In this document: positions 2,553 to 60,271 of the stretch, piece after piece
How positions within the stretch are numbered: position 1 is the first letter of the stretch
Layout: each line of letters begins with the position of its first letter
DNA from: a virus
IMG/VR virus record: IMGVR_UViG_3300044825_000512
Coordinates: 1-60,271 of that record
Length of the DNA: 60,271 nt
Strand: one strand, 5' to 3'
Made by a program: the position numbers and the translations under genes
The notes under the pieces: model-generated
Databases searched by the model: none
The model's input: the letters and a program-made list of their open reading frames with translations, nothing else
What the model was told of the DNA's origin: nothing

Positions 2553-2575
2553 CAGTATAACACAACGGGGGTTAG
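2553..2575 (-). promoter_or_regulatory. Conserved phage promoter/operator motif
   Basis: The minus strand reads CTAACCCCCGTTGTGTTATACTG, about 25 nt upstream of the ATG at 2528. Confidence 0.6.
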
Positions 2576-3218: not shown

Positions 3219-3718
3219 GTATCTATGTAACTTCGCCTCGCCCGTACTATGGAGCATTTCAAGATTCGACAACACAAACAATCGCAAGCACAACAACGGC
3301 TTATCCAGTCAAATTCAATACAACAGATTACGCAAACAAGGTCAGCGTCGTAAGTGATGGAACGAATCCAACTAGAGTCACGGTAGAAAATCGCGGTATT
3401 TACAACATTCAATTTAGTTTCCAGTTGGCTAATGCTTCAGCAAGCACCGAGAATGATGTTGATATTTGGCTTCGAATTGATGGGGTCGATGTGGCTGGTT
3501 CAAACGGACAGGTTTCAATAGTGCCAAGCCACGGAGGAACTTCAGGAAAATTGTTACCTAGTTGGAATTATATTCTTGAACTTATGGCAGGTCAGTATTT
3601 TCAACTTATGTGGAGAGCAACTAGTACGGATGTCACCATGCCATTTATTGCGTCTCAAATCAATCCAGTTCGACCAACAACACCAAGCGCTATCGTGACA
3701 GTTACTCAGGTGAGTTAG
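3215..3718 (+). CDS. C1q/TNF-like (BclA C-terminal-domain-like) jelly-roll protein
   Basis: 167 aa. The pattern TTQTIAS...VKFNT...RGIYNIQFSFQL...WLRIDGVDVAGS...LMAGQYFQLMW matches the C1q-like beta-sandwich signature by eye. Confidence 0.6.
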   Translation: MSIYVTSPRPYYGAFQDSTTQTIASTTTAYPVKFNTTDYANKVSVVSDGTNPTRVTVENRGIYNIQFSFQLANASASTENDVDIWLRIDGVDVAGSNGQVSIVPSHGGTSGKLLPSWNYILELMAGQYFQLMWRATSTDVTMPFIASQINPVRPTTPSAIVTVTQVS

Positions 3719-3927
3719 TGGTGACCGAGATGATTGAAACGCCTTTCGAGGTTTTCGAAAGTTGTGATAGATGCGGAGCGAGGGCAAAGGTCGGAGCCAC
3801 TTTTCTCAACGGCGAACTATACTTTTGTGGGCATCACGCAAAGACTTTACAACCTCACTTGATTGCGAAGGCGATAACTATTTATGACCCCGAACGATAT
3901 ATGGAAAAACAGGAACCACTCGGCTGA
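3718..3927 (+). CDS. Zinc-ribbon protein (CDRCGARA...FCGHH)
   Basis: 69 aa with a GTG start overlapping the previous stop (TAGTG). As I recall, this Cys/His pattern is typical of a small actinobacterial/actinophage family. Confidence 0.65.
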   Translation: MVTEMIETPFEVFESCDRCGARAKVGATFLNGELYFCGHHAKTLQPHLIAKAITIYDPERYMEKQEPLG

Positions 3928-3994: not shown

Positions 3995-4177
3995 TTAGAT
4001 GGATTCAATTATGGTGCTAATTACAGAACTAATGACAATCAAGATAAAACTACCCAACAAGGTGATGCCCCATAAGTAGCGCAGTTCAGGGAACTTTGCT
4101 GGTGGACGCTTTGCCTTGATGCGTGGCTTATTGATTATCTGACTGAACTTTTGGTCAATGACCTCTTGGTTTTCCAT
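3995..4177 (-). CDS. Small C-tail-anchored membrane protein
   Basis: 60 aa with a C-terminal hydrophobic stretch, WGITLLGSFILIVISSVISTII. GAGAGGAAAC SD and promoter motif upstream. Confidence 0.7.
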   Translation of the reverse strand: MENQEVIDQKFSQIINKPRIKAKRPPAKFPELRYLWGITLLGSFILIVISSVISTIIESI

Positions 4178-4221: not shown

Positions 4222-4788
4222 CTACTTATTCCTTGATGTCGCAACCTTCTTCTTGGATTGTTCTAAAAACATAAATGGCGCAGATGTATAGGCGTCATAC
4301 TTCGAAGCAATCTTGAGAGCCTCTTCAACAGTTGCTCCTTGAGCGAGCGCTCCAATCGCATAACTAGAACCCGAGCCAACGCCATAGAATCCTTTTGAAT
4401 CAAGAGCGATAGACATATCATCGGCGAGTTCAAAGACGGTGCCACCGATAGCGATAAGAAAAGCGAATTTAGTTTCGCCATCATCATCGGCTTCATTCCA
4501 CTTGTATTCGTTATCCTTGAAACATTGTTTCAAAGATGGAACAACTCGAGCAATCATGAAATGGTACAAATCATCTAATTCAGCATTGCTTGGTTTTGGT
4601 GGCATCCAAATGTGTTGAGCAATATCGCAAGGCGCACATTCGCCACTTCCAGCAATTATGAATTCCCCGCGCTTTGAAATCTTGACCATCTGCGGATGAT
4701 TAGCAACACGACCACTTCCAGCCGTCACTTGAGAATCAGCACCGAATAAAACCTTGTCCCGATACTGGACGGCTACGATTGTGGTCAT
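4222..4788 (-). CDS. Proteasome beta-subunit / HslV-like Ntn-hydrolase peptidase
   Basis: 188 aa. N-terminus MTTIVAV (Thr nucleophile after Met removal, as in HslV MTTIVSV), GADSQVT, conserved Lys in MVKISKRG, and YGVGSGSSYAIGAL. Confidence 0.8.
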   Translation of the reverse strand: MTTIVAVQYRDKVLFGADSQVTAGSGRVANHPQMVKISKRGEFIIAGSGECAPCDIAQHIWMPPKPSNAELDDLYHFMIARVVPSLKQCFKDNEYKWNEADDDGETKFAFLIAIGGTVFELADDMSIALDSKGFYGVGSGSSYAIGALAQGATVEEALKIASKYDAYTSAPFMFLEQSKKKVATSRNK

Positions 4789-4804
4789 GCCCTAATCGTA
4801 ACTC

Positions 4805-5728
4805 CTAGGGTTTCACAACCTCGGTAGGAAGCGCCATAAGTCCGAATGAGGCGTTCTTCCACACCTCGGGAGTTCCCGTATCAGGCAAGTAACCGCCAGC
4901 CCCGCCAAGCAGAATTGGCATATTTGGGAATTGCTCACGGATAAGGCGCATTGAGTTGAAATATCCCTCGGGCGTGTACTTGAGATTCGATAGCGGGTCA
5001 TCGGCTAAACCGTCAGCACCGCAAGCAACGAAAATCATTGTTGGATTGAATTCTTCACACGCTGTAAGGAATCCCTCGGTTGCGCTAATCAAAGCATCGT
5101 CACCTGACCCTGAAGCAAGCGGGAAGTTATAGGCGCGATTATTCCAATCGCTGAGTAAACCCGTGCCTGGGAAAATCCCGTACTCATGAACTGAGTAAGT
5201 CAGAACATTCTTGTTACGGCGCAAGAGCATTTCGGTACCGTCACCATGGTGAGCATCGCAATCGAAGATAGCAACACGGTGTTCATATTCGTTGGTTGCT
5301 TTAGTTGCGGCGATAGCAAAGTCAGCGAAGATACAGAATCCGCTTGAGTAGTCACGCATCGCGTGATGCTTGGCTCCAGCAAAGTTGATGGCAAGCAAAG
5401 TTTTCTTGTCAATCAAAGTATCGAGCGCAGTCAAAGTACCGCTCACAAACAACTTGGCTAGTTCGCCTAGGTCGTGGCGTTGTCCGCTCCACTCAGTAGA
5501 TTCGCCTCGTACAGTCACATCGAATACATACGACATATCGTGAACAAGATGAAGGTCATCGGTAGAGCAATGCTCAGGTTCTATCTCCCAAACATTGAGT
5601 CGGCGCTTTTGCGCTTCAAGGACTAATTGATTGCGAGCATGAAGAAACCTGCGCCCTTGAGTTGGATGCGTTTTGTCAAAAACCCAATTCGCATACTCAG
5701 GCGAATGAACCAGTATTGCGTGTTCCAT
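4805..5728 (-). CDS. Histone-deacetylase (HDAC/AcuC/acetylpolyamine amidohydrolase) family deacetylase
   Basis: 307 aa with all family motifs: GAKHHA, FDCDAHHGDGT, ACGADGLADDPL and GGAGGY (catalytic Tyr). Confidence 0.85.
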   Translation of the reverse strand: MEHAILVHSPEYANWVFDKTHPTQGRRFLHARNQLVLEAQKRRLNVWEIEPEHCSTDDLHLVHDMSYVFDVTVRGESTEWSGQRHDLGELAKLFVSGTLTALDTLIDKKTLLAINFAGAKHHAMRDYSSGFCIFADFAIAATKATNEYEHRVAIFDCDAHHGDGTEMLLRRNKNVLTYSVHEYGIFPGTGLLSDWNNRAYNFPLASGSGDDALISATEGFLTACEEFNPTMIFVACGADGLADDPLSNLKYTPEGYFNSMRLIREQFPNMPILLGGAGGYLPDTGTPEVWKNASFGLMALPTEVVKP

Positions 5729-5747
5729 GTATTTCTCCTCTCTCTCT

Positions 5748-5778
5748 AATATAAACCTAAGTTTATACTAATTATCAA
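5748..5778 (-). promoter_or_regulatory. AT-rich sigma70-like promoter for the deacetylase/peptidase pair
   Basis: The minus strand reads TTGATA-N17-TTTATA(TT), followed by the GAGAGAGGAG SD and the ATG at 5728. Confidence 0.35.
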
Positions 5779-5779
5779 T

Positions 5780-6040
5780 TTATCTCAAATCGCACTTTGG
5801 ACATTTGAGTGTGTAGTTCTCCTGAATCAATTCAGTCTTACATTCACCACAGAAAAGATTCGTGTGTTTTGTTTTGCTCACTCGAGTTTCCTCCCAAGCA
5901 TCCTCGGCAGACCATAGCGGTTGATATTTTGCGTCGGCTTTATCTTTTGCCTCTTGCTCATCCTCAGCATAGATTCGAACCGTTTTCTCCGCCACAATCT
6001 GAACGGTAAACCATTTTTTGCGTGGAGTCACGATAGCCAC
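5780..6040 (-). CDS. Hypothetical protein with C-terminal zinc ribbon
   Basis: 86 aa, CGECK...CPKC. GTG start at 6040, or GTG at 6031 with better AAGGAG spacing. Confidence 0.65.
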   Translation of the reverse strand: MAIVTPRKKWFTVQIVAEKTVRIYAEDEQEAKDKADAKYQPLWSAEDAWEETRVSKTKHTNLFCGECKTELIQENYTLKCPKCDLR

Positions 6041-6609
6041 TCCTTGAGTGTTGATTGCGGATAACCAATCTCATGTAGCCATGCGATGACTCGAGATTCG
6101 TAGTGTTCAGTCGTAAAGACATCTACGCTTTGTGAAAAGACATTGGATGTCTGCTCAGTCAAAACATAGAACGGATACGGTGTTGGAAAACTACCATCGG
6201 CAATCTCGTTCAAGAATCCATTGAACTTGGCTTTGCGCTGTGTTGTCTCATCAGCCCATCCAGTTGTCCAGCCTTGAGCGATAACCTTGACATTCTTGAA
6301 ATTATCGATTGTTGAGCCATGCCCACGCCAGCCGTCAGTCTGAACCCACTTGCGTACATCGACTCCATCTCCACATAAATCTTTGAAGAAGTCAGGAATC
6401 TCTAGGTCGTCGTCATAGATGACATAGTTACCGATTCGGCATGAATTGATTTCGCCACCGTGAACCAGTACGAGACTTGATGCGCTTTGTAAATCATCTT
6501 CTTGGCATCCGTAGCAAAGTACGCCATCTTTTACATTTGAGTAAGTATGGTCGCCATCTTCAAAGACATCTTCACAACTAACGCACTTTTGTTTTGTATC
6601 AGTTGTCAT
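6028..6609 (-). CDS. Hypothetical protein with N-terminal CxxC...CxxC
   Basis: 193-aa ORF, translationally coupled with its neighbours. Confidence 0.75.
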   Translation of the reverse strand: MTTDTKQKCVSCEDVFEDGDHTYSNVKDGVLCYGCQEDDLQSASSLVLVHGGEINSCRIGNYVIYDDDLEIPDFFKDLCGDGVDVRKWVQTDGWRGHGSTIDNFKNVKVIAQGWTTGWADETTQRKAKFNGFLNEIADGSFPTPYPFYVLTEQTSNVFSQSVDVFTTEHYESRVIAWLHEIGYPQSTLKEWLS

Positions 6610-6815
6610 TTCTCCCCCTTAGTAATTACGCCAGCCTCAAGAAGAGCCTCGGCAGTTCGTCCGTATGTACCTTGTAAAGACCAAGCCAAACCAGTATCTA
6701 CAAGATATTGGAATAACTCAATCACCTGTTCCTCTGTTGCCTCGCCAGTTTCGAATTCGATGATTCGAGTTGTGAGGTCAAACTTTCCCTCTGCGTTTAG
6801 TGTTGCTTCACTCAT
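6606..6815 (-). CDS. Hypothetical protein
   Basis: ATG at 6815 (MSEATLNAEGKFDL...) with GGAGAGGGAG SD. ATGA overlap with 6812..7150. The longer track ORF has an implausible Cys/Arg-rich N-terminus. Confidence 0.65.
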   Translation of the reverse strand: MSEATLNAEGKFDLTTRIIEFETGEATEEQVIELFQYLVDTGLAWSLQGTYGRTAEALLEAGVITKGEK

Positions 6816-7150
6816 GATTTCACTCCCTCTCCGAATGGAACATTGACATAGCAACTTGCTTTGTAAGCGACTTCGCCTACCTCTGTGAAGTAGACATCTT
6901 CGACAACGCCCTTGACCTTGACTACACCCTTGCGGACAAACTCGCGTCGCACAATCCATGTATCCATGAAGCCAAGAGTGATTGCTACTCGGTAGCCATG
7001 ACCGACAGGAAGTTGAACCTCGACAGTTTCGCCTTGGTCATTGACGACAGAATGAACGCGACCACCTGAGATGGCAAGAACATTCATCAAGCCGATTTGA
7101 TTGACGAGTTCTTTAGTATCGAAAACTCGCTGTTGATATTGATTCGTCAT
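6812..7150 (-). CDS. Hypothetical protein
   Basis: 112 aa. GAGAGGAGACAAA SD and promoter motif upstream. Confidence 0.75.
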   Translation of the reverse strand: MTNQYQQRVFDTKELVNQIGLMNVLAISGGRVHSVVNDQGETVEVQLPVGHGYRVAITLGFMDTWIVRREFVRKGVVKVKGVVEDVYFTEVGEVAYKASCYVNVPFGEGVKS

Positions 7151-7175: not shown

Positions 7176-7197
7176 AGTATAACATAACTGGGGTTAG
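7176..7197 (-). promoter_or_regulatory. Conserved phage promoter/operator motif
   Basis: The minus strand reads CTAACCCCAGTTATGTTATACTC. The TAA inside the motif is the stop codon of 7194..7583. Confidence 0.65.
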
Positions 7198-7820: not shown

Positions 7821-7843
7821 GAGTATATCACAACTAGGGTTAG
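7821..7843 (-). promoter_or_regulatory. Conserved phage promoter/operator motif
   Basis: The minus strand reads CTAACCCTAGTTGTGATATACTC, the same 21-mer as at 38827..38848. The TAA inside it is the stop of 7840..8160. Confidence 0.65.
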
Positions 7844-9352: not shown

Positions 9353-9467
9353 CCAAAATCGCGTAGCCGACAATTCCTTTCGCAGTTCCATCTAAAACAA
9401 TCCAAGCAACGAACATTCCAAGTAATGTCCAAAGTTGCCCAATCATGTCATTGATAAAGTTCTTCAC
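9294..9467 (-). CDS. Small two-TM membrane protein coupled to the secreted lectin protein
   Basis: Hand-translated: GTG overlapping the TAG of 9467..11650 (TAGTG), with AGGAGA 5 nt upstream. Product is ...MIGQLWTLLGMFVAWIVLDGTAKGIVGYAILATLGVWALTYPLRREKKED. Confidence 0.55.
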   Translation of the reverse strand: MKNFINDMIGQLWTLLGMFVAWIVLDGTAKGIVGYAILATLGVWALTYPLRREKKED

Positions 9468-11650
9468 TAAGGTCTCCTATATCCAGCACCGCCGATAGCG
9501 ACGGAAGCCATTGTAGTTGTTGCGATATTGCCAACGATTGTCGCGGCAATAATTGTTTTCGTTGCTTCTTCTCTTTCTTCAGGTGACATATCGGCACCGA
9601 GATTTCCAAGAGCAAAAATAAGTTGAGCAGGTGATTCGAATATCGCGCTGATAATTTCTGCTGGTGATGCGAGAAGTTCTAAAGCATCGGCAATCTCAGC
9701 GGTGATGATGACAGGGTTTCCATCTTCATCGGTTCGAACATCAACAGGGGTCTCGGCTGGAAGGTCGGCGAAATCAAGACCCGCTTCAATGAGTGCCGAG
9801 GCTGGCACCGCTTCCGCATCCGCGAATTGAGCAACAATCGCAGTCGCAATTATCTCGCGCTCCTCATCGTCGAGTTTTCCATCCGCTTTCGCAGATTCAA
9901 CAACAGAGGCAACTTCATCGGCTGTGACAGTTCCATCTTGTAAGATATCTTTTATTATTTCAGAGGGAGATTCTTCAGATGTCGGTTGTGGTTCAGGTGT
10001 TTGATTTGTCGGGTCAGTTTCCGTTGGGCTTTCAGAGGGTTGAGGCTCAGGTTCTTGAGAAGGCTCAGGAGTTGGCGTTGGCTCAGGGTCGGGAGAAGGT
10101 GACTCTTCAGGACTTGGACTTGGCTCAGGTTCAGGGGACGGAGTGGGAGTGGGTTCAGGTTCAGGACTTGGTTCAGGAGAAGGCTCAGGTGAAGGTTCAG
10201 GAGTTGGCTCGGGAGTCGGCTCTACCGAAGGGCTATCGCTTGGACTCGGAGCAGGGGTTGGTTCGGGACTTTGAATCGGCTCAGGTGACTGAGATGGAGT
10301 TGGGGTAGGCGATGGCGAAGGTGTGGGTTCAGTTGTGGACGGCTCAGGTTGCGGGGTCGGTTCAGGTTGAGGAATCGGAGTTGGCGAAGGTTGAGGGCTT
10401 GGCGAAGGTGAAGCCGTTGGTTCCGATGTTGGTTGAGGTTCAGGAGAAGGAGTGGAAGTTGGTTCCGACGGTGTTGGTGAAGGAGTCACCGTTGGTTCAG
10501 GTGTCGGGGTTGGTGTCGGAGTCGGCGACGGCTCAGGAGTTGGCTCGGGCTGAGGAGTTACTTGAGGTGTTGGAGCCGTGGAAGGACTAGCATCACCATA
10601 TTCAAGAATTACTTGAAGTCGCTTTACGATTCCACCGCAAGGGTCACCGAAGATTGCGTTGCTTGCTTGAATGACCGCATTATTTTGACCAAGGAAAATC
10701 TCGGAAACTTTTTGGATTGAACTTACAGCATGACATTGAGCATTGATTACAAAGTTCTCAGGTAATCCGTAACTAGCAAAAAATACATTGGTAAAAACTT
10801 TTCCAATCGGCGCAACAAGATTCAAAGATTCATTTTCGTTTGCCGTACCATTCACACTATTCGAAGGAGGTTGTGATGAATTGGACGGATTGGTTGTTGC
10901 TGTTGGGCTTTCTGATGGGGTGGGCTGTGGGCTTGATTCAGGGGTCGGCGAACTTGAAGGCGCGGGTTCAGTTGGCGATTGAGATGGAGTCGGCTCGGGT
11001 GATGGAGAGGATGAATCTGTTGGAGTCGGAGTTGCGGTGGACGAAGGCGACGGTGAAGGCTCGGGACTTGGACTTGGAGAGGGTTCGGGAGAAACAGTCG
11101 GAGTGGGCGAAGGAGAAGATTCAGGAGTTGGTGTCGGAGAAGCAATCACAGTCGGAGTATCAGATGTCGGAGACGCAGAAGGCTCAGGCGTTGGCGAAGG
11201 GGTGGGGGTGGGTGTTGGGGCAGGAGCAGGAGAACTCACCGAAACAGTAAAGACTGGTCCGTACCATCCAGCCCAAAAACCATTATCGATTCCCGATACA
11301 GAAATTGTTACTTGACCCGAAGCAACAGCGCTCACGCTGGTCTGCTCAATCGCATTGCCACTAAAACTTTGACCATTGATTGAAACGCTCCAGTTATCAG
11401 CAATCGGAGTACAACTACCAATACAGTTGGCGATAGTGTTATTGATTGCCACCGTTACAGTCGAGCCGTCGCTCACGGTTTTCACATAGGAAGCGCTACC
11501 GCCTCGGTAATCGAATTGAATCGAATCTCCCGAGACATTGCCATTGACCACGGATTCCCAAGACCCGCTGGCGCTCGCCGAATCGGACATGGGTAGGAGC
11601 GTCCACCCAAAGGCTAGGACGCAAACGGTCAAAACACGAAAAAGACGCAA
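9467..11650 (-). CDS. Secreted/cell-surface protein: signal peptide, beta-rich domain, PT/PS/PE linkers, SUEL-type (rhamnose/galactose) lectin domain, C-terminal hydrophobic anchor
   Basis: 727 aa with a TTG start. Signal peptide RLFRVLTVCVLAFGWTLLPMSDSASA. Lectin signature FASYG...C...SNAIFGDPCGGIVKRLQVILEY. C-terminus IIAATIVGNIATTTMASVAIGGAGYRRP. Confidence 0.85.
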   Translation of the reverse strand: MRLFRVLTVCVLAFGWTLLPMSDSASASGSWESVVNGNVSGDSIQFDYRGGSASYVKTVSDGSTVTVAINNTIANCIGSCTPIADNWSVSINGQSFSGNAIEQTSVSAVASGQVTISVSGIDNGFWAGWYGPVFTVSVSSPAPAPTPTPTPSPTPEPSASPTSDTPTVIASPTPTPESSPSPTPTVSPEPSPSPSPEPSPSPSSTATPTPTDSSSPSPEPTPSQSPTEPAPSSSPTPESSPQPTPSESPTATTNPSNSSQPPSNSVNGTANENESLNLVAPIGKVFTNVFFASYGLPENFVINAQCHAVSSIQKVSEIFLGQNNAVIQASNAIFGDPCGGIVKRLQVILEYGDASPSTAPTPQVTPQPEPTPEPSPTPTPTPTPEPTVTPSPTPSEPTSTPSPEPQPTSEPTASPSPSPQPSPTPIPQPEPTPQPEPSTTEPTPSPSPTPTPSQSPEPIQSPEPTPAPSPSDSPSVEPTPEPTPEPSPEPSPEPSPEPEPTPTPSPEPEPSPSPEESPSPDPEPTPTPEPSQEPEPQPSESPTETDPTNQTPEPQPTSEESPSEIIKDILQDGTVTADEVASVVESAKADGKLDDEEREIIATAIVAQFADAEAVPASALIEAGLDFADLPAETPVDVRTDEDGNPVIITAEIADALELLASPAEIISAIFESPAQLIFALGNLGADMSPEEREEATKTIIAATIVGNIATTTMASVAIGGAGYRRP
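9962..10594 (-). repeat. Pro/Thr/Ser/Glu-rich low-complexity coding repeat (linker 2)
   Basis: About 210 residues of (P-[TSE])n after the lectin domain. Degenerate 6-12 nt periodicity (ggttcagg/ggctcagg). Confidence 0.85.
10856..11233 (-). repeat. Pro/Thr/Ser-rich low-complexity coding repeat (linker 1)
   Basis: About 125 residues of PAPAPTPTPTPSPTPEPS... between the N-terminal domain and the lectin domain. Confidence 0.85.
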
Positions 11651-15314: not shown

Positions 15315-15698
15315 ATGGGTTTACCTGAGTTTGTTGATGTTGCTCCGTGCCGTTCTGCCGACCCTTGGTTATTCGACCAATATCAAATCGACTTAGCGCA
15401 ACCAGCACTTTCGTATTGTTCCCGATGTAAGTTTTGGCAAGAGTGTGACTCTCTAGTTCAGCCTAAGACTAATCATTACGATGGAATTGTTGCGGGAAAA
15501 GTTTGGAGAAATGGTCGCGTATTGGCTAAGTTAGATTCCTCTTCCCCCAATCGCCTAGTAGTCGGAGAGGAACCTGATGAAGATATTGATGCCATGGAAT
15601 TTCGAGGGAGCGAGTTGTTGGGGGATAGATACGGATTTCTTCTTCCCCGAGAACCATGGGATAACGGAGGAGAACCGAGTAGCCAAGAAGATTTGTAA
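15315..15698 (+). CDS. WhiB-like Fe-S transcription factor (divergent paralog with long tail)
   Basis: C12-x23-C36-x2-C39-x5-C45 (APCRS...YCSRCKFWQEC). The turn motif is degenerate (GIVAG). The 55-aa tail overlaps the next gene by 122 nt. Confidence 0.7.
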   Translation: MGLPEFVDVAPCRSADPWLFDQYQIDLAQPALSYCSRCKFWQECDSLVQPKTNHYDGIVAGKVWRNGRVLAKLDSSSPNRLVVGEEPDEDIDAMEFRGSELLGDRYGFLLPREPWDNGGEPSSQEDL

Positions 15699-18292: not shown

Positions 18293-19297
18293 ATGCCATT
18301 TCGTTTTGCGAAAGCGGAAAGACCTCGGCGGATTCCTCTAAGTCCTGAAGAGCAAGCCCTTGCCCGTACTCTTTATGAATCAATTCAAAGAGCAACAGAC
18401 AAAATATCAATGAAGCAACTGGAGCGCTTGCTCCGTAATCTTGACCCACAAACTTTAGAGCGCTTGGTAAGTGCTATCACTATTGCTAATCAGAAAAGAA
18501 TTCAAGAAGCATTATTAGCCTCGATTGATATTGGTGGCAATAAAGCGATTGAACAGATTCAAGATATTGCTCCTAAGTTAGCCCTTCCAGCCTTCACACC
18601 AAGTAAAGTAAAGATAACCAATAAAAAGCCTATGGCTAACATGGAGTTCACACAGGTTCCTATGTGGGCGCAATCTCGACGACCTAAAGTAGATTTCAAG
18701 ATGTCTTTCAATAAGACTAATCCAAACTCTTTAGCCTTTGCCGAGCGCCGTGCTGGAGAACTTGTAGTTGCTATTGATAACTTGAGTCGTATCGCAATTC
18801 GTCAAACAATTATTGATGCCTTCAATGAACAGTTAGATTACAGAGCAACAGCCAAGAGAATCAAGAATGTTGTGGGACTTCACCCTCAATGGGCTAAAGC
18901 AGTTACAAAATTTGAACGAGATGAATTCGCTCGTCTAGTTCGTAGCGGATTGAAAGAAGAGACCGCTCGCGCTCGCGCCATGGAACGAGCATCACGATAT
19001 TCAGATTCTCTCAAGAGTAAACGAGCCACCATGATTGCTCGTACAGAGATTCAAATTGCTCAGAATGAGGGACGCTATGAAGGATGGAAACAAGCGGCTG
19101 AAGAAGGATTCGTAGACCCTGAAGCACAAAAAATGTGGGTTACTGCTCCCGATGAAAGAACTTGCGATATATGCGCTCCGCTAGACGGAGAACTTGTTCC
19201 TTGGAATGGTTCATTCTCAATCGGACTTGAAGCGCCAATCGTTCACCCTAATTGCCGTTGTACCATGGTAATCATTCCACCCGAAAGACGCCGATGA
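18293..19297 (+). CDS. Head morphogenesis protein, SPP1 gp7 / Mu F-like (MuF)
   Basis: C-terminal signature MIARTEIQIAQNEG...DERTCDICAPLDGELV...HPNCRCT. Confidence 0.9.
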   Translation: MPFRFAKAERPRRIPLSPEEQALARTLYESIQRATDKISMKQLERLLRNLDPQTLERLVSAITIANQKRIQEALLASIDIGGNKAIEQIQDIAPKLALPAFTPSKVKITNKKPMANMEFTQVPMWAQSRRPKVDFKMSFNKTNPNSLAFAERRAGELVVAIDNLSRIAIRQTIIDAFNEQLDYRATAKRIKNVVGLHPQWAKAVTKFERDEFARLVRSGLKEETARARAMERASRYSDSLKSKRATMIARTEIQIAQNEGRYEGWKQAAEEGFVDPEAQKMWVTAPDERTCDICAPLDGELVPWNGSFSIGLEAPIVHPNCRCTMVIIPPERRR

Positions 19298-21117
19298 CAA
19301 CCACTATCAATCTTCCTATTGGCTATCGTCCAGTTCTAAAACATGGCGAGCATGACCAGTCAAGCCATGGCTCATGGGCGCACGGGGTTCAGGTAGAGCC
19401 TGAAGTGGTTCGCTCGGTTCTTGATAGGGTCAAAGAGAACGGTGGTCTCTCAGTAAGCCTCAAGGACGGCTCAGAGCCTACAAAAGGCTTCATGGTCGCT
19501 AAGGGCAAGAAGTACGCCGCAATCGTGAAGGCGGATGACTTCTTCGATGAAGCCAAGGGCGCAGAGATTCTTTCCTCATACATGAAACAGCATAAGGCTG
19601 ACCTAGCAACAGGGAAAAACTACCTCGGTTTATGGCACAATACCGAGGATGGACAGGTCTACCTTGATGTATCAGAAAACATCATGGATGAGGGAGAGGC
19701 TACTTCAAGAGGTCGTGAACGCGACCAAATTTCCATTTGGGATGTAGCAAACTTCAAGGAAGTACAGACAGGAGGAACAGGTGGCATCGAAAAAACTCGA
19801 GGCAGTCGAACTACCCGATATGTCAAACATGACAGACGAGCAGATAGACGCATACGCCAAAGAGATTTGGGCGAAACTCGCACAAGGCAAACAAGATTCG
19901 AAGTAATCTATTTTGACTTTGGGTTGAAACCCGTATTCAAACATGGGGAACATGACCAATCAGAGCATGGCAACTGGGCGCGTGGATTTACAGATAGCGA
20001 GCGCGAACTTATTGAACGCATGGATGGGGTTGGTCCTAGTCTTGAAGATTTAGATAATGTAATCAAAGATGATAGAGAAGTTTCAGACGACGAAATTCGT
20101 ATGATGGTTGATAATGACCGCGATATGTATGACATCATTCAAGGAATGGTTGATGACAAGATGGCTTATCATCAAGATGAAATTTCTAAAATGCCCGAAA
20201 ACGAACAAATTAGAGTTCGTGAACAAATGGAAGATATGGCTCGAGACCAATATATTTCTGAAAACTATGATGATTTAGCAGAGCGTGTTCGCCTTGAATC
20301 GGGAGATAGCGGAGCGGTGGATGCTTCCGAACTTACCCCTTATTTTGATGAAGTCTATTCAATAGAACATACTGGAACAAGTGCGAGCGGTGTCGAAGTA
20401 ACTCTCCGCAGTAGTGTTGAAGAAGTTTACAGAGACGGCGATGACATCATGGTTAGCGCTGGCGTTTACGATGAGGACAATAATCGAGTTGGTGAAGTTA
20501 GCCGAAGATTCTTCAAAGAAAATGGCACATGGAATGTTGAACACGCCTTACTTGCTTTAGAAAGTGATGATGTTCGAGGTACTGGCTTTGGCAAAGAATT
20601 CATTAGGCAATCTGAGGCTTGGTACACAGCAAAAGGCATGGGTTATATCGAAGTTGGTACAGCATGGGACGGCGCTCGCCATTGGGCTAGAGCGGGTTAT
20701 GATTTTGCGCCCGATAAGGTTGTAAGAAATCTCAGTACAATCGCAAACGAAGTAGCAATGAGTCCTGAATCCTATGGAGCAAACACACCAGCGGGTAAAG
20801 AATTTGATTCGATTATGTCTCGCGCTACAAACGATTATCGCCGAGATTCTGAAGGTAGACCAACTTGGTCTACGGTAAAAGATATGAAAGAAGATAACTT
20901 TCCTTTACCCGCCGAATTCGCCAACATTGGATATAAGAGTGGCGATACTGAATGGGCTGGAAAGAATTTGATGTATGGATTGAAAATGTATTATGTCAAG
21001 GCTCTTACCGCTGAAGGTCAAAAACTTCTTGAGGGTCCTATTGACCACGATGGGGATGGATTGATTTACGATGGAACAGCCCGTGAGAAACCAGCGCCTA
21101 GTGGCGGAAACAAATAA
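19294..21117 (+). CDS. Large head-module protein with two KHGEHDQS(S/E)HG motifs and a GNAT-like acetyltransferase-fold C-terminal domain
   Basis: ATGA-coupled start at 19294. Motifs at 19339..19380 and 19939..19980. GNAT motif A-like VRGTGFGKEF, then ...WARAGYDF. Confidence 0.75.
   Translation: MTTTINLPIGYRPVLKHGEHDQSSHGSWAHGVQVEPEVVRSVLDRVKENGGLSVSLKDGSEPTKGFMVAKGKKYAAIVKADDFFDEAKGAEILSSYMKQHKADLATGKNYLGLWHNTEDGQVYLDVSENIMDEGEATSRGRERDQISIWDVANFKEVQTGGTGGIEKTRGSRTTRYVKHDRRADRRIRQRDLGETRTRQTRFEVIYFDFGLKPVFKHGEHDQSEHGNWARGFTDSERELIERMDGVGPSLEDLDNVIKDDREVSDDEIRMMVDNDRDMYDIIQGMVDDKMAYHQDEISKMPENEQIRVREQMEDMARDQYISENYDDLAERVRLESGDSGAVDASELTPYFDEVYSIEHTGTSASGVEVTLRSSVEEVYRDGDDIMVSAGVYDEDNNRVGEVSRRFFKENGTWNVEHALLALESDDVRGTGFGKEFIRQSEAWYTAKGMGYIEVGTAWDGARHWARAGYDFAPDKVVRNLSTIANEVAMSPESYGANTPAGKEFDSIMSRATNDYRRDSEGRPTWSTVKDMKEDNFPLPAEFANIGYKSGDTEWAGKNLMYGLKMYYVKALTAEGQKLLEGPIDHDGDGLIYDGTAREKPAPSGGNK
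19781..19906 (+). CDS. Embedded +1-frame ORF with strong SD (overlapping gene, or sign of a frameshift in 19294..21117)
   Basis: AGGAGG-aacag-GTG. 41 aa, ASKKLEAVELPDMSNMTDEQIDAYAKEIWAKLAQGKQDSK. The co-linear zero frame is unusually Arg-rich. Confidence 0.3.
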   Translation: MASKKLEAVELPDMSNMTDEQIDAYAKEIWAKLAQGKQDSK

Positions 21118-21320: not shown

Positions 21321-22955
21321 ATGGCGGATATTGCTCCTAAACTGATTCACCTAAGCGCTGAGAAACTCAATGCGCTACATGAGCGTGTCCATAAGTCGGA
21401 AGCAACCCCCGCGATTATCGAGGTTCACCACACAATTCTCAATGAGATGGCTCGTCGCAAGATGGAGCGCCCTCAAGATGATTGGGATAAGTACGAGATT
21501 CTTGTTGATTCAATCGACAATGTAGACCTAACCACCCTTGGCGGATTACCAGCCGAAACAGTTCTTGAAGTCATCAAGGCGACAGGTGATACCGCTGGCA
21601 ATATCAAAACCTTCCTGACCGTCAATGGTTATCAGATGCGAGTAGAACCCGTTGAAAAGCGAATCCAACAAGAAGATGGAAAATGGATTGTTTACAACGA
21701 AGAGGGAACAAGAAGTTTTGGAAGTTACGATTCCAAAGAAGAGGCTGAAGAACGGCTTCGTCAGATTCATGCGTTTTCAAAAGCCGACGATACTTACACT
21801 CCACCAAAGGCAGTACGCGCCGCGGCGCAACGAGCGATTGAATGGATTGATAACGGTCTTGCTGGAGATGGATTTACTTCCGTCGGTAGAACAAGAGCGG
21901 GTCAATTAGCCCGTGGTGAAAACATCAGTATCGAAACTCTCAAGCGAATGAAATCATTCTTCTCTCGTCACGCAGTTGATGATAAAGCGGTTGGATTCAA
22001 TCGCGGAGAAAAAGGATTCCCTAGCGCTGGTCGAGTTGCGTGGGATGCTTGGGGTGGAGATGCTGGATTCGCATGGGCTGAATCAATGGTTGAGCGATAT
22101 GAGAATCGAGTAGAAAAACATGGAGACCATGACCAATCCTCACACGGAGCGTGGGCTGGCGGAAATGCTGGTGGAGAAGATGGTGGCTCATCTCGCCCCC
22201 GTATGGCAGATGATGTCAAGCCAAGTTCAGAGCGAAGCGCAGATGCCGTCAAACAAGCAGAGCGACTAAGAAGAGACGCAGAGGCAGTAGAACCCGCAGT
22301 CACTTCTTTGATGGAAGGTATTGCTAAAACTATCGGTGCTGATTTCGCAGTTCTCGATGGCAAGAGTTCTCTTGAACAAAGATTGAAGTCCACAGATTCA
22401 CTTGCTCGCAAGATTGATGCCGATGCTGAAAAAGACCATGGCGGAGATAGAGAGAAAGCGGCGAACGCAATCTCCGATGCTGTTCGATACACACTCAATG
22501 TTGATGAAGCCGATTACACAGATGGCGTAGAAAAAACTGTTGATGCTTTGGAAGCAACAGGTTGGAAAGTTGAATCAGTCAAAAACTTTTGGCAAGCGGG
22601 TGACCCTTACGATGGCACCAATATCAAACTTAGCAAAGACGGCGTGAAGGTTGAACTACAACTTCACACTCCACAATCTCACCGAGTCAAAGAGGTTGAT
22701 TTACACACAGATTATGAGACCTATCGTAAATCGACTGATAATGCTGAACGCAAGCAGATTTGGGACAGAATGGTTGAGAAGGCTAAGGCGATTCCACGCC
22801 CTGCCAATATGGGCAAACTTATGACCCTTGGAACCCTCGTAGTCCAAACCTACGAGACGGCTCAACAGGCTGGATTGACTAAATCAACTGGGGTTGATAT
22901 TCTATGGTCAATAACGAGAGGAGGTATAGCCGTATGCGGTATTTCGCAAAACTAG
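21321..22955 (+). CDS. Large head-module protein with KHGDHDQSSHG motif and C-terminal RelA/SpoT-like (small alarmone synthetase / toxSAS-like) nucleotidyltransferase domain
   Basis: 544 aa. Ordered RSH synthetase motifs: RLKSTDSLARKI, ISDAVRYTL, DPYDGTNIKL, VELQLHTPQS and HTDYETYR. The peptide motif is at 22116..22157. Confidence 0.8.
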   Translation: MADIAPKLIHLSAEKLNALHERVHKSEATPAIIEVHHTILNEMARRKMERPQDDWDKYEILVDSIDNVDLTTLGGLPAETVLEVIKATGDTAGNIKTFLTVNGYQMRVEPVEKRIQQEDGKWIVYNEEGTRSFGSYDSKEEAEERLRQIHAFSKADDTYTPPKAVRAAAQRAIEWIDNGLAGDGFTSVGRTRAGQLARGENISIETLKRMKSFFSRHAVDDKAVGFNRGEKGFPSAGRVAWDAWGGDAGFAWAESMVERYENRVEKHGDHDQSSHGAWAGGNAGGEDGGSSRPRMADDVKPSSERSADAVKQAERLRRDAEAVEPAVTSLMEGIAKTIGADFAVLDGKSSLEQRLKSTDSLARKIDADAEKDHGGDREKAANAISDAVRYTLNVDEADYTDGVEKTVDALEATGWKVESVKNFWQAGDPYDGTNIKLSKDGVKVELQLHTPQSHRVKEVDLHTDYETYRKSTDNAERKQIWDRMVEKAKAIPRPANMGKLMTLGTLVVQTYETAQQAGLTKSTGVDILWSITRGGIAVCGISQN

Positions 22956-23665
22956 GGGCTAACAATGAGGCGATAAACATTTATCGCTTTGAGGTTGGCG
23001 ACACAGAGATGGTCGAGGACAGATGGGATTTACGCAGTAGTTCTTGGGTCAATAATCCTGATGCCGATGTTGTTCGTTACCTAACGCAAGGCGAAGGTGA
23101 TTTCCAAGAGTTAGCCGAAGAGGTTGCTCGTCAGATTTTTCCTCAAGCCTTCACCGAAGAAGCAACAAAGGCTCTAGGTAAGTTTGATTTACAGAAAGCC
23201 GAAGGGGAAAAGCGTTACACCCTTGGAGCCATGTACATCCCTGATATGGAAGATGCTCATGGAGAGTGGACGGATTCCGATGAATTACAAAGAGCAGTTT
23301 GGGATTATGTAAGAAGCAATGACCGCCGTATTCGTTTACAGCACAACAAAGAAGTAGTCGCTGGCGAATGGGTTGAAGTCATGGCATTTCCATATTCACT
23401 TACAGTTCCAATCAAGACTCCCGAAGGAGAAGAGTTTCAACATACCTATCCACCGAACACGGTGTTCTTAGGTGTCATTTGGGAACCTTGGGCATGGAAC
23501 ATGGTTCAAGAAGGAAAGATTCGTGGGTATTCAATCGGTGGAAAAGCCGAGCGTTTATTTGTCGATATTGATTTAGAGAAAAACGACCCAACGGTGTCGG
23601 ATGTACATATTGATACAATTATGTCCCCGTCGAAAAAGAAGCCAAAAAAGGACGAAACTGTATGA
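22934..23665 (+). CDS. XkdF-like prohead protease
   Basis: GAGAGGAGG SD before the ATG at 22934. KRYTLGAMYIPDMEDAHGEWTD...RIRLQHN...IRGYSIGG matches my recollection of the PBSX XkdF family. Confidence 0.7.
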   Translation: MRYFAKLGANNEAINIYRFEVGDTEMVEDRWDLRSSSWVNNPDADVVRYLTQGEGDFQELAEEVARQIFPQAFTEEATKALGKFDLQKAEGEKRYTLGAMYIPDMEDAHGEWTDSDELQRAVWDYVRSNDRRIRLQHNKEVVAGEWVEVMAFPYSLTVPIKTPEGEEFQHTYPPNTVFLGVIWEPWAWNMVQEGKIRGYSIGGKAERLFVDIDLEKNDPTVSDVHIDTIMSPSKKKPKKDETV

Positions 23666-38830: not shown

Positions 38831-38848
38831 CCCTAGTTGTGATATACT
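38827..38848 (+). promoter_or_regulatory. Conserved phage promoter/operator motif
   Basis: CTAACCCTAGTTGTGATATACT (the TAA is the stop of 38546..38830), followed by cccGAGAGGAGGgcaag and the ATG at 38874. Confidence 0.65.
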
Positions 38849-58685: not shown

Positions 58686-60271
58686 ATGAGCGAGAGACTT
58701 CTCGATAAGTTCCTCGAAAGTGATTCCATCAAACAAGCCGAGTTGCTTGCGATGCTCACACCTGAAGAGCGCCATGCCTTATCGGTCATGCTTGATGCTG
58801 AGTTAGAGAATCCATGGGCTAGATGGCAAAGCGACCCAGTTGGATTCGTTGAAGAAGGATTGGGCGAGACTCTTTGGAGTAAACAGAAAGAGATTCTCAA
58901 TTCCCTTTTGATAAATAAAAGAACAGTAGTTCCAGCCTGTCACGCGCCTGGGAAATCTCACCTTGCGGCGAGAGCAGTTGCGTGGTGGTTATCAACGCAT
59001 CCAGCGGGAACAGCGGTAGCAATTACAACAGCGACTACACACCGACAGGTGAGAAACATTATGTGGCCGCATATTCGAAGAGTTCATGCTAAACATAATC
59101 TGCCTGGGGAAGCCGATACGGTTCAATGGAAAATCAATGGCACCGTAGTTGGATACGGATTTAGTCCGAGCGCTCATGATGAAACAGCGGTTCAGGGTAT
59201 CCACGCTCCAAACCTTTTAGTTGTTGTTGATGAGGCTGGAGGTTTATCGGACACAATCGGTGGCGCACTTGAATCTCTCATGACGGGTGGAAATACAAAA
59301 CTCCTTGTACTTGGAAACCCTCCAACAGATACAGAACAAACATGGTTCGAAAGAATCTGCTCGAGTCCGCTTTACAATGTGATTCCGATTGGTGCCTATG
59401 ACACTCCTAACTTTACGGGTGAGGCTACGGGCAGATGTCGCTCATGTCCTGATTACATAGAAGCCCACGAAGTCAAGACTCACCTCGTTGATAAAACTTG
59501 GGTTGATGATGTCATTTCTGAATTCGGTGAGGATTCGCCATTCGTTGAAGCCCGTGTACTAGCGCAGTTCCCTAAGTCGAGTACGGGCAAAGTCATCCCG
59601 TTCGCATGGGCTGAGTTATCTACCGAGAATGAAACACCGCTTGAATCTAATCTGATTCGCCTTGGGGTGGATATTGCTTCAGATGGTGGAGATGAGTTCG
59701 TTATTGCTAGGGCTGACGGATACAAGGTAAGCATTGCTCATCGCTCATCGGGCAAGCAAAACGCCAACGCGGTTGATGTGGCTGGCGTGGTCATGCGAGA
59801 GATTGAAACCTGTATCAAGATTCATCAAGACCGAGGATTACGAGACCGAGTTCGAGTCAAGGTCGATACCATCGGATTAGGTTGGGGTGTTGTATCCATG
59901 TTGGATAGATGGGTCAAGGAGCGCCAGTTACCCGCTGACATTATTGGAGTCAATGTAGCCGAGAAGCCTAAAGACCAAGCCAAGTTCAAGAATCAAAGAG
60001 CCGAGATGTGGTGGAACGCCCGACAGTTGATACAGCCCAAGGATGGCAAGCAGGATGTCCGATTGAATGTAGATAGATTTGTTCTCTCGCAGTTGGCAGG
60101 ACCAACCTATACATCGGACGCATCGGGTCGAGTCGTGATTGAATCCAAGGTCGATATGAAGAAACGGGGTGTCGCTTCGCCTGACCGTGCTGAGGCAATA
60201 CTCTTAGCCCTCTACGAAAACCGCTCCGTCATTCAAAGCATCGCGCCAATCTCGATAGGACAATCAAACCC
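58686..60271 (+). CDS. terL: Terminase large subunit (runs off the window end; completed at 1..146)
   Basis: Hand-translated. Walker A ACHAPGKSH, Walker B LLVVVDEAG, and nuclease-domain motifs RLGVDIASDGGDEF and VDTIGLGWGV. There is no stop before 60271. Confidence 0.9.
   Translation, partial: MSERLLDKFLESDSIKQAELLAMLTPEERHALSVMLDAELENPWARWQSDPVGFVEEGLGETLWSKQKEILNSLLINKRTVVPACHAPGKSHLAARAVAWWLSTHPAGTAVAITTATTHRQVRNIMWPHIRRVHAKHNLPGEADTVQWKINGTVVGYGFSPSAHDETAVQGIHAPNLLVVVDEAGGLSDTIGGALESLMTGGNTKLLVLGNPPTDTEQTWFERICSSPLYNVIPIGAYDTPNFTGEATGRCRSCPDYIEAHEVKTHLVDKTWVDDVISEFGEDSPFVEARVLAQFPKSSTGKVIPFAWAELSTENETPLESNLIRLGVDIASDGGDEFVIARADGYKVSIAHRSSGKQNANAVDVAGVVMREIETCIKIHQDRGLRDRVRVKVDTIGLGWGVVSMLDRWVKERQLPADIIGVNVAEKPKDQAKFKNQRAEMWWNARQLIQPKDGKQDVRLNVDRFVLSQLAGPTYTSDASGRVVIESKVDMKKRGVASPDRAEAILLALYENRSVIQSIAPISIGQSN
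60145..60271. repeat. Direct terminal repeat identical to 1..127
   Basis: Exact 127-nt match to the start of the window. Confidence 0.95.

Follow-up and report, generated by a model that had tools for sequence, protein, structure and literature searches.

The IMG/VR virus record IMGVR_UViG_3300044825_000512 (positions 1 to 60,271, the whole 60,271-nt stretch being called the window hereafter) encodes, side by side on its minus strand, a Zn-dependent deacetylase of the HDAC family and a proteasome-like Thr peptidase. Both proteins are members of known families; what is new is the host origin of the deacetylase and the recurrence of this neighbourhood, with or without a gene for a DSPc dual-specificity phosphatase, in other phages. 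The best overall explanation, to which we give about even odds (a probability of roughly 0.5), is that a deacetylase captured from the host and a Thr peptidase act as loosely coupled partners in one takeover programme. A preliminary description of the sequence had reported the two open reading frames (ORFs), their common strand and their 16-nt spacer correctly, and was silent on the host origin of the deacetylase and on its phosphatase partner. The two genes are:

4805..5728, minus strand: predicted Zn-dependent deacetylase, 307 aa, ATG start, class I HDAC/AcuC-like (PF00850).
4222..4788, minus strand: predicted proteasome-like N-terminal-nucleophile Thr peptidase, 188 aa, ATG start, BPH/HslV group (PF00227, phrog_1040).

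The HDAC-family assignment, proposed earlier from motifs, was confirmed by profile searches. PF00850 (Hist_deacetyl) matched ORF 4805..5728 with an E-value of 2e-55 and 188.6 bits against a cut-off of 27.9, over profile positions 1-291 of 298, and the four quoted HDAC/AcuC motifs (GAKHHA, DCDAHHGDG, GADGLADDPL and GGAGGY) are all present. Alignment to HDAC2 and HDAC6 identified the catalytic His pair (H121/H122), the Zn ligands (D158/H160/D239), the K+ site (D156), the catalytic Tyr (Y280), the substrate-tunnel residues (G130-F131-C132, F186 and L246) and the acetate-release channel residue (R27). All of these are invariant across 33 homologues, and the His-His, Zn-ligand and Tyr residues are also kept in the more distant phage and host genes described below. 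The protein thus has every catalytic residue of a Zn deacetylase, and is predicted to be catalytically active. Its AlphaFold2 model (predicted local distance difference test, pLDDT, 92.3) has the arginase/deacetylase alpha/beta fold; the top PDB matches found with Foldseek were HDAC8, HDAC2 and HDAC3 (query-normalised template modelling score, TM, of 0.81-0.86; E ~1e-23), and the highest single-domain sequence score was that of HDAC2 (145 bits). The class I HDACs (HDAC8/HDAC2) and bacterial AcuC, grouped as “cluster 2” of the classical deacylases (PMC11532494), share with the window protein the fold (TM ~0.85), the signatures N-x-A-G-x-x-HHA, D-x-D-x-HHGDG, GAD...D.L and GG.GGY, and the Zn, K+ and tunnel residues. 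The window deacetylase differs from them in being compact (307 aa): its L2 loop region is shortened, only 27 residues follow GGAGGY, and the C-terminal helices are absent. It is 24-26% identical to the solved structures. No NCBIfam model and no PHROGs family matched it.

We did not find any characterised phage-encoded HDAC in the searchable literature. Among viral structures in BFVD, only giant-virus proteins matched the model at E <= 0.001, and no phage entry did. These proteins, like the giant-virus APAHs (PMC9992855), are virus-encoded and have the same fold; they come, however, from eukaryotic giant viruses, are related to the Mycoplana APAH, and are 15-22% identical to the window deacetylase (15% for the enzyme annotated as acetylpolyamide aminohydrolase). 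Closer relatives occur in two cultured actinophages, Rhodococcus phage E3 (gp202) and Microbacterium phage Magritte (gp204); these uncharacterised proteins are likewise members of PF00850 and share 33-37% identity with the window protein. We considered the two phages as a third example of the neighbourhood and rejected them, as neither gene adjoins a peptidase or a DSPc gene.

The peptidase had been described as proteasome-beta/HslV-like. Membership in this superfamily stands: ORF 4222..4788 matched PF00227 (Proteasome) above its cut-off (24.8 bits against 22.4, in the N-terminal part only) and phrog_1040, “peptidase HslV family” (3.6e-29, residues 1-184). Residues T2, T3, D18, K36 and G138-S139-G140 match Thr1, Asp17, Lys33 and the GSG oxyanion loop, and they are invariant in eight alleles that diverge down to 28% identity. 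A particular closeness to HslV does not stand. A profile built from the eight divergent alleles matched BPH (5ovu) over its full length with 5.9e-13, against 5e-9 for the best HslV, and the protein falls below the NCBIfam HslV equivalog level (27.2 and 26.4 bits against cut-offs of 137 and 157.75). By sequence, BPH and the phage proteasome homologues described by Fuchs et al. (2021) are nearer to the peptidase than HslV is. BPH (5ovu/5ovs) is its best solved-structure match, and the two have Thr1/Asp17/Lys33/GSG in common.

With BPH and the other group I homologues (HslV, AAH, CPH and PPH), the peptidase shares a compact subunit without propeptide or C-terminal extension, although at 188 aa it is longer than PPH (~140 aa). 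The MTT start without propeptide is common to all clades of the peptidase, and removal of Met1 would expose Thr1. BPH is a double ring of heptamers whose pore loop is long and acidic. In the window peptidase, residues E98-E105 (EADDDGE) align with an acidic stretch of BPH that we take to be the acidic pore loop of PMC5777263, which would make them a putative pore loop. The equivalent stretch is less acidic in other peptidase clades. Like BPH, AAH and PPH, which lack AAA+ partners (PMC8665760, PMC5777263), the peptidase comes without an unfoldase of its own: we found no Walker-A motif, as expected of an HslU-type AAA+ protein, in any ORF called in the window, and the large ORFs are annotated otherwise. 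BPH and its relatives are proposed to be compartmental proteases that work independently of an unfoldase (PMC5777263, PMC8665760); the BPH-like features, together with the lack of a Walker-A protein among the called ORFs, suggest the same for the window peptidase.

The peptidase profile matched 5484 representative clusters at 50% identity in public data; in the cluster look-ups, the distant relatives were only metagenomic contigs auto-annotated as “HslVU peptidase subunit”. Searches of the collections were run with single peptidase clades, the all-clade profile being too divergent to serve as a query. One metagenomic protein of 552 aa (P0382) has an N-terminal peptidase domain followed by ~385 extra residues, and may be a fusion that hints at a partner.

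To follow the pair across phages we used IMG/VR contigs, which are non-independent samples, calling ORFs by a simple longest-ORF procedure in flanks of 5-10 kb; a partner may also lie elsewhere in a genome. In the window lineage (group 1), 80 loci with the deacetylase were retrieved, 77 of which had room downstream and were testable. The peptidase gene lies downstream of the deacetylase gene on the same strand in 74 of these 77, and in 29 of 32 clusters after dereplication at 95% deacetylase identity. The gap is 49 nt or less in 55 loci; a GP88-family gene is inserted in 15 and an AdoMetDC-like gene in 4. All 35 loci with 4 kb or more of flank on each side have the peptidase, and other genes of the window occur in 0 to 32 of these 35. 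The region is strongly mosaic, and peptidases of at least three clades occupy the slot next to the deacetylase. The deacetylases of L038 and L040 (L numbers denote the loci compared) are 94.8% identical, and their peptidases 31%. In L027 and L028 the slot holds an allele of peptidase clade 2, a clade that otherwise occurs in the larger phages described next or without a deacetylase within 5 kb. The GP88-family gene (PF17338, 239 aa) lies between the pair in L003 (10453-11172) and in 14 other group-1 loci; further copies of this family were seen elsewhere in related contigs.

A second set of loci was found with a Magritte-type deacetylase as query, which yielded 62 IMG/VR loci (L264-L325) on contigs of up to 136 kb. 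They represent freshwater phages of 100-136 kb (group 2). In 47 of the 52 group-2 loci with enough upstream sequence, the peptidase gene is located 577-821 nt upstream of the deacetylase gene. The gene between them, present in 53 of the 62 loci, encodes a DSPc phosphatase (Pfam), giving the order peptidase, DSPc, HDAC, large terminase (for example in L271, 3836-7469). The catalytic residues of deacetylase and peptidase are all retained. The group-2 deacetylases are 34-36% identical to that of the window, ~40% to the host genes and 43-45% to Magritte gp204, and the two groups were sisters in 0 of 200 neighbour-joining bootstraps. From these loci and the separate origins of their deacetylases, we infer that the neighbourhood has arisen, or has been kept, in two different phage types. 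A lack of recurrent linkage in related genomes would have counted against the preliminary description; such linkage does recur.

The pair had earlier been called unusual in a phage, with no described system known. Our literature searches also found no published phage HDAC-proteasome pairing, and no INPHARED record has both genes; the pair is indeed absent from cultured phages, and yet dozens of viral contigs from fresh water carry it. Related “protease” genes are present in cultured Microbacterium and Arthrobacter phages. Fuchs et al. reported no Actinobacteria-specific AAH-encoding phages and no gene context hinting at function (PMC8665760). Here, in contrast, the peptidase is found in an actinophage, beside a deacetylase alone or beside a DSPc phosphatase and a deacetylase.

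We searched for the origin of the deacetylase by scanning its alignment against one genome per prokaryotic species. The nearest cellular proteins are encoded by chromosomal genes of Ca. Nanopelagicaceae/Planktophila, with full-length identities of 44-55%. The genomes include complete chromosomes of 1.4-1.5 Mb with a GC content of 44-48%, which matches that of the phage, and the host enzymes share the compact size and the catalytic residues of the phage protein. In neighbour-joining trees with 200 bootstraps, the only trees built, the group-1 phage deacetylases are monophyletic (200/200) and nest with the actinobacterial chromosomal genes; host genes and group 1 together exclude group 2 in 78.5% of the replicates. 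The phage gene is therefore a captured host gene. Because its nearest cellular relatives are the Ca. Nanopelagicaceae/Planktophila genes, an acI-type freshwater actinobacterium is indicated as host of the phage. The major capsid protein has counterparts in ~60-kb Arthrobacter and Microbacterium phages, with which it shares 53-57% identity; both lines of relatives make the actinobacterial host supposed in the preliminary description likely, and a freshwater acI actinobacterium (Ca. Nanopelagicales) is the most likely candidate. ORF 15315..15698 (plus strand) was considered as a further host marker for its WhiB-like Cys pattern, seen by eye; it had no Pfam match and was set aside, and the host call thus rests on the capsid and deacetylase relatives.

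The host gene lies in a conserved cluster. In L135 (OZ254153.1, 3361-7265) the cluster consists of genes for a VWA-domain protein, a DSPc dual-specificity phosphatase, a 262-aa protein, the deacetylase and a 103-aa protein, and VWA and/or DSPc adjoin the deacetylase gene in at least 30 host genome loci. The group-2 DSPc is clearly homologous to the host DSPc by alignment. Host and window deacetylases are thus alike in size, catalytic residues and sequence, and differ in company: the host gene is found with VWA and DSPc, neither of which is in the window, and the phage gene with a peptidase. NCBIfam and PADLOC gave no functional annotation for the host cluster.

Two side observations concern these loci. 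Next to the deacetylase cluster of L135, an inserted island carries dynamin-like, PDC-S11, trypsin-like and GajB-like helicase genes; L136 and L139 lack the defence-like genes at this position. We also found deacetylases of this family on short contigs in non-actinobacterial metagenome-assembled genomes (Ca. Fonsibacter, Pseudomonadales and Chthoniobacter): L133 (RFXN01000247.1), L142 and L180. The L133 protein is 87% identical to that of the window, and L142 groups with the phage clade; the three contigs are probably mis-binned fragments.

In the window, the pair sits in a non-structural block on the minus strand, in opposite orientation to the structural genes. The features relevant to its expression are the following, all on the minus strand:

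5729..5788: AT-rich region upstream of the deacetylase gene, including a 51-nt AT-rich spacer.
5788..5760: weak sigma-70-like site TTGAGA-17-TAAACT, a single match and putative promoter.
5740..5735: GAGGAG ribosome-binding site upstream of the deacetylase gene, from the sequence.
4806..4802: AGGAG overlapping the stop codon of the deacetylase gene, read from the sequence.
4789..4804: 16-nt spacer between deacetylase and peptidase genes, read from the sequence.
3995-4177: ORF of 60 aa with a hydrophobic C-terminal segment and its own ribosome-binding site, 44 nt past the peptidase gene.

A terminator scan found none in the 16-nt spacer, and the short gap together with this result makes a single transcription unit for the pair plausible; the 60-aa ORF may belong to the same transcript. 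The AT-rich region had been described as a promoter region unlike the common phage motif. A promoter-like motif, CCCCRGTTRTGWTATACT, does occur in the window with four matches against 0.15 expected, each followed ~20 nt on by a GAGGAG-type ribosome-binding site, at 2554-2571 (minus), 7176-7193 (minus), 7822-7839 (minus) and 38831-38848 (plus). It is absent upstream of the deacetylase gene, as had been stated; as for a promoter there, the region offers only the one weak sigma-70-like match.

Our preferred reading, that of loosely coupled partners, would work as follows. Deacetylase and peptidase would be made from one transcript of the minus-strand block. The phage deacetylase, a copy of a lineage-specific host enzyme, would remove lysine acetyl groups from the protein substrate or substrates of that enzyme, and would thereby override a regulatory state of the host. 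Protein lysines are the most likely targets, shared with the host enzyme; we favour a protein lysine deacetylase because of its class I-like sequence and fold, the phosphatase in the host cluster, and the uptake of that phosphatase along with the deacetylase by the group-2 phages. The peptidase would lose Met1, use Thr1 as nucleophile, assemble into a double ring of the BPH/HslV type and degrade peptides as well as proteins in an unfolded or loosely folded state, with no unfoldase supplied by the phage, although it could possibly use a host AAA+ protein. The two enzymes would be co-expressed partners in takeover, not an obligate complex.

Several results weigh against this reading. The genes are also found apart. 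The deacetylase occurs without the peptidase in L075-77 and L213-216 (including a 90-kb contig), in L111 (a 110-kb contig), and in Magritte and E3. The peptidase alone is commoner still, in 10 of 32 loci of its main clade and in several clade-2 loci, and for two clades with 586 and 144 IMG/VR matches, no deacetylase was found near the peptidase in the loci sampled (0/80 and 0/80). Likewise, none of 80 host genome loci had a peptidase within 6 kb of the deacetylase. Within group 1, unrelated genes (GP88 and AdoMetDC-like) are tolerated between the pair, and two further neighbouring genes, found in 31-32 of 35 loci, are nearly as constant as the peptidase; part of the group-1 linkage thus reflects simple descent. 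On the side of the proteins, the structure prediction that served the deacetylase well failed for the peptidase, with an unusable AlphaFold2 model (pLDDT 41.8, 27-sequence alignment), so that its fold and oligomer are proposed from sequence only. The “early” timing of the two genes is assumed from their position. Since the genes are found apart, peptidase alleles are swapped and the host loci lack a peptidase, a co-adapted complex or any obligate coupling is unlikely, and a loose relation, or none, is favoured.

The absence of any functional link is accordingly the rival that survives best, and we regard it as possible but on balance doubtful. It would hold that the two are independent accessory genes, adjacent through shared descent and an insertion hot spot. 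Deacetylase and peptidase each stand alone in many phages, a GP88 or AdoMetDC-like gene separates them in 19 loci, peptidase clade 2 fills the slot in L027/L028 and is found elsewhere with no deacetylase within 5 kb, and both the two near-constant neighbours and the host cluster without peptidase fit such a view. The adjacency, however, recurs in a second phage group of other size and gene order whose deacetylases were never sister to those of group 1 in the bootstraps, and it outlasts a divergence of the peptidase to ~28% identity within a strongly mosaic region. Moreover, the deacetylase is rarely found without the peptidase (8 of 129 testable loci, groups 1 and 2 together).

A closer coupling than the one we prefer can also be imagined, although we think it rather unlikely: the deacetylase, with DSPc where present, might strip acetyl and phospho marks from a host protein controlled by the VWA-DSPc-HDAC cluster, and so license its degradation or keep the peptidase active (“erase-then-degrade”). 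If true, this would give the orphan proteasome homologues of bacteria and phages (BPH, AAH and PPH) their first functional context, and no phage system before it would have used a Zn-dependent HDAC to rewrite lysine acetylation in the host.

It is improbable, in our view, that the deacetylase is an acetylpolyamine amidohydrolase (APAH) freeing putrescine or spermidine for phage replication or DNA packaging, with the peptidase unrelated. An AdoMetDC-like pyruvoyl enzyme (PF02675, 3.9e-12; Ser-His processing motif kept) is encoded between the pair in L014 (5957-6352), L024, L029 and L079, and a second allele, 46% identical, just downstream of it in L027/L028 (9761-10141). The documented polyamine genes of viruses include phage AdoMetDC homologues and giant-virus APAHs (PMC9992855), and an enzyme outside the bacterial APAH cluster can acquire polyamine specificity, as human HDAC10 did (PMC11532494). 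Nevertheless, the AdoMetDC-like gene is present in only ~7 of the 77 group-1 loci and absent from the window, and the conserved partner in hosts and group 2 is a DSPc phosphatase, not a polyamine gene. The closest relatives of the deacetylase are not of the APAH type (bacterial “cluster 4”, Mycoplana APAH): its top sequence and structure matches are class I protein deacetylases, and in the classification of Graf et al. bacterial polyamine deacetylases belong solely to a cluster other than theirs (PMC11532494).

We consider it very improbable that the deacetylase serves the peptidase itself, by keeping Thr1 or the catalytic Lys unacetylated or by restoring charge on Lys-rich substrates that enter an acidic chamber. 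Eukaryotic beta-subunit propeptides shield Thr1 from N-alpha-acetylation, and the MTT start of all peptidase clades comes without a propeptide. The putative pore loop is acidic, like that of BPH (PMC5777263), and the deacetylase is nearly always accompanied by the peptidase, the reverse not being true. Against such a role, hundreds of phage contigs, including those of cultured Microbacterium and Arthrobacter phages, have the peptidase without a deacetylase, and the free swapping of peptidase alleles speaks against co-adaptation. In addition, HDAC-family enzymes are known to act on N-epsilon-acyl-lysine and polyamine amides, not on N-alpha-acetyl groups.

That the pair is an anti-defence device against host immunity signalling or killing through acetylation is scarcely credible: in L135 the host cluster does border a PDC-S11 candidate, a GajB-like helicase and a trypsin-like protease, but these are an insertion specific to that locus, and PADLOC models match neither the two phage proteins nor the host VWA, DSPc and HDAC-flanking proteins.

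The Zn-dependent deacetylase is an auxiliary gene captured from acI Nanopelagicales, which are very abundant freshwater bacteria, and the VWA-phosphatase-deacetylase cluster of the host is the likely hijacked pathway. Proteasome homologues without unfoldase (BPH, AAH and PPH) are widespread in bacteria and phages, and the recurrent neighbourhood provides a testable hypothesis for them.

The window itself has an exact 127-nt terminal overlap (1-127 = 60145-60271), and is thus a circular assembly of a complete phage genome of 60,144 bp, with a GC content of 45.5% and no tRNA genes. A megablast search with a 3.5-kb query found no close relatives among the 50,697 phage records of INPHARED. The structural genes include those for a portal, an XkdF-type head protease, a major capsid protein and a major tail protein; a 1346-aa ORF is also encoded, and the large-terminase gene apparently crosses the junction of the circle. 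Further features are:

3718-3927, plus strand: ORF with a DUF7455 domain (domain match).
6606-6959, minus strand: ORF with a DUF7417 domain (domain match).
9467-11650, minus strand: 727-aa ORF with a sub-threshold SUEL-type lectin match (28.3 bits against a cut-off of 31.4).
19252..21117, plus strand: ORF called GNAT-like in the preliminary description, with a match to a PHROG of unknown function over residues 79-167 only.
22904..23665: XkdF-type S78 protease, in the capsid module.

Because of the separate S78 protease, we rejected a role of the peptidase of ORF 4222..4788 as head-maturation protease. The deacetylase had been speculated to counteract the supposedly GNAT-like virion protein; we detected no Pfam domain in ORF 19252..21117, and no acetyltransferase/GNAT domain, and this idea was dropped. 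The 727-aa ORF contains a long, highly repetitive stretch, with DNA repeat families that span ~10040-11230; its location is the non-structural block, and its product is a possible host-binding or cell-wall-binding protein.

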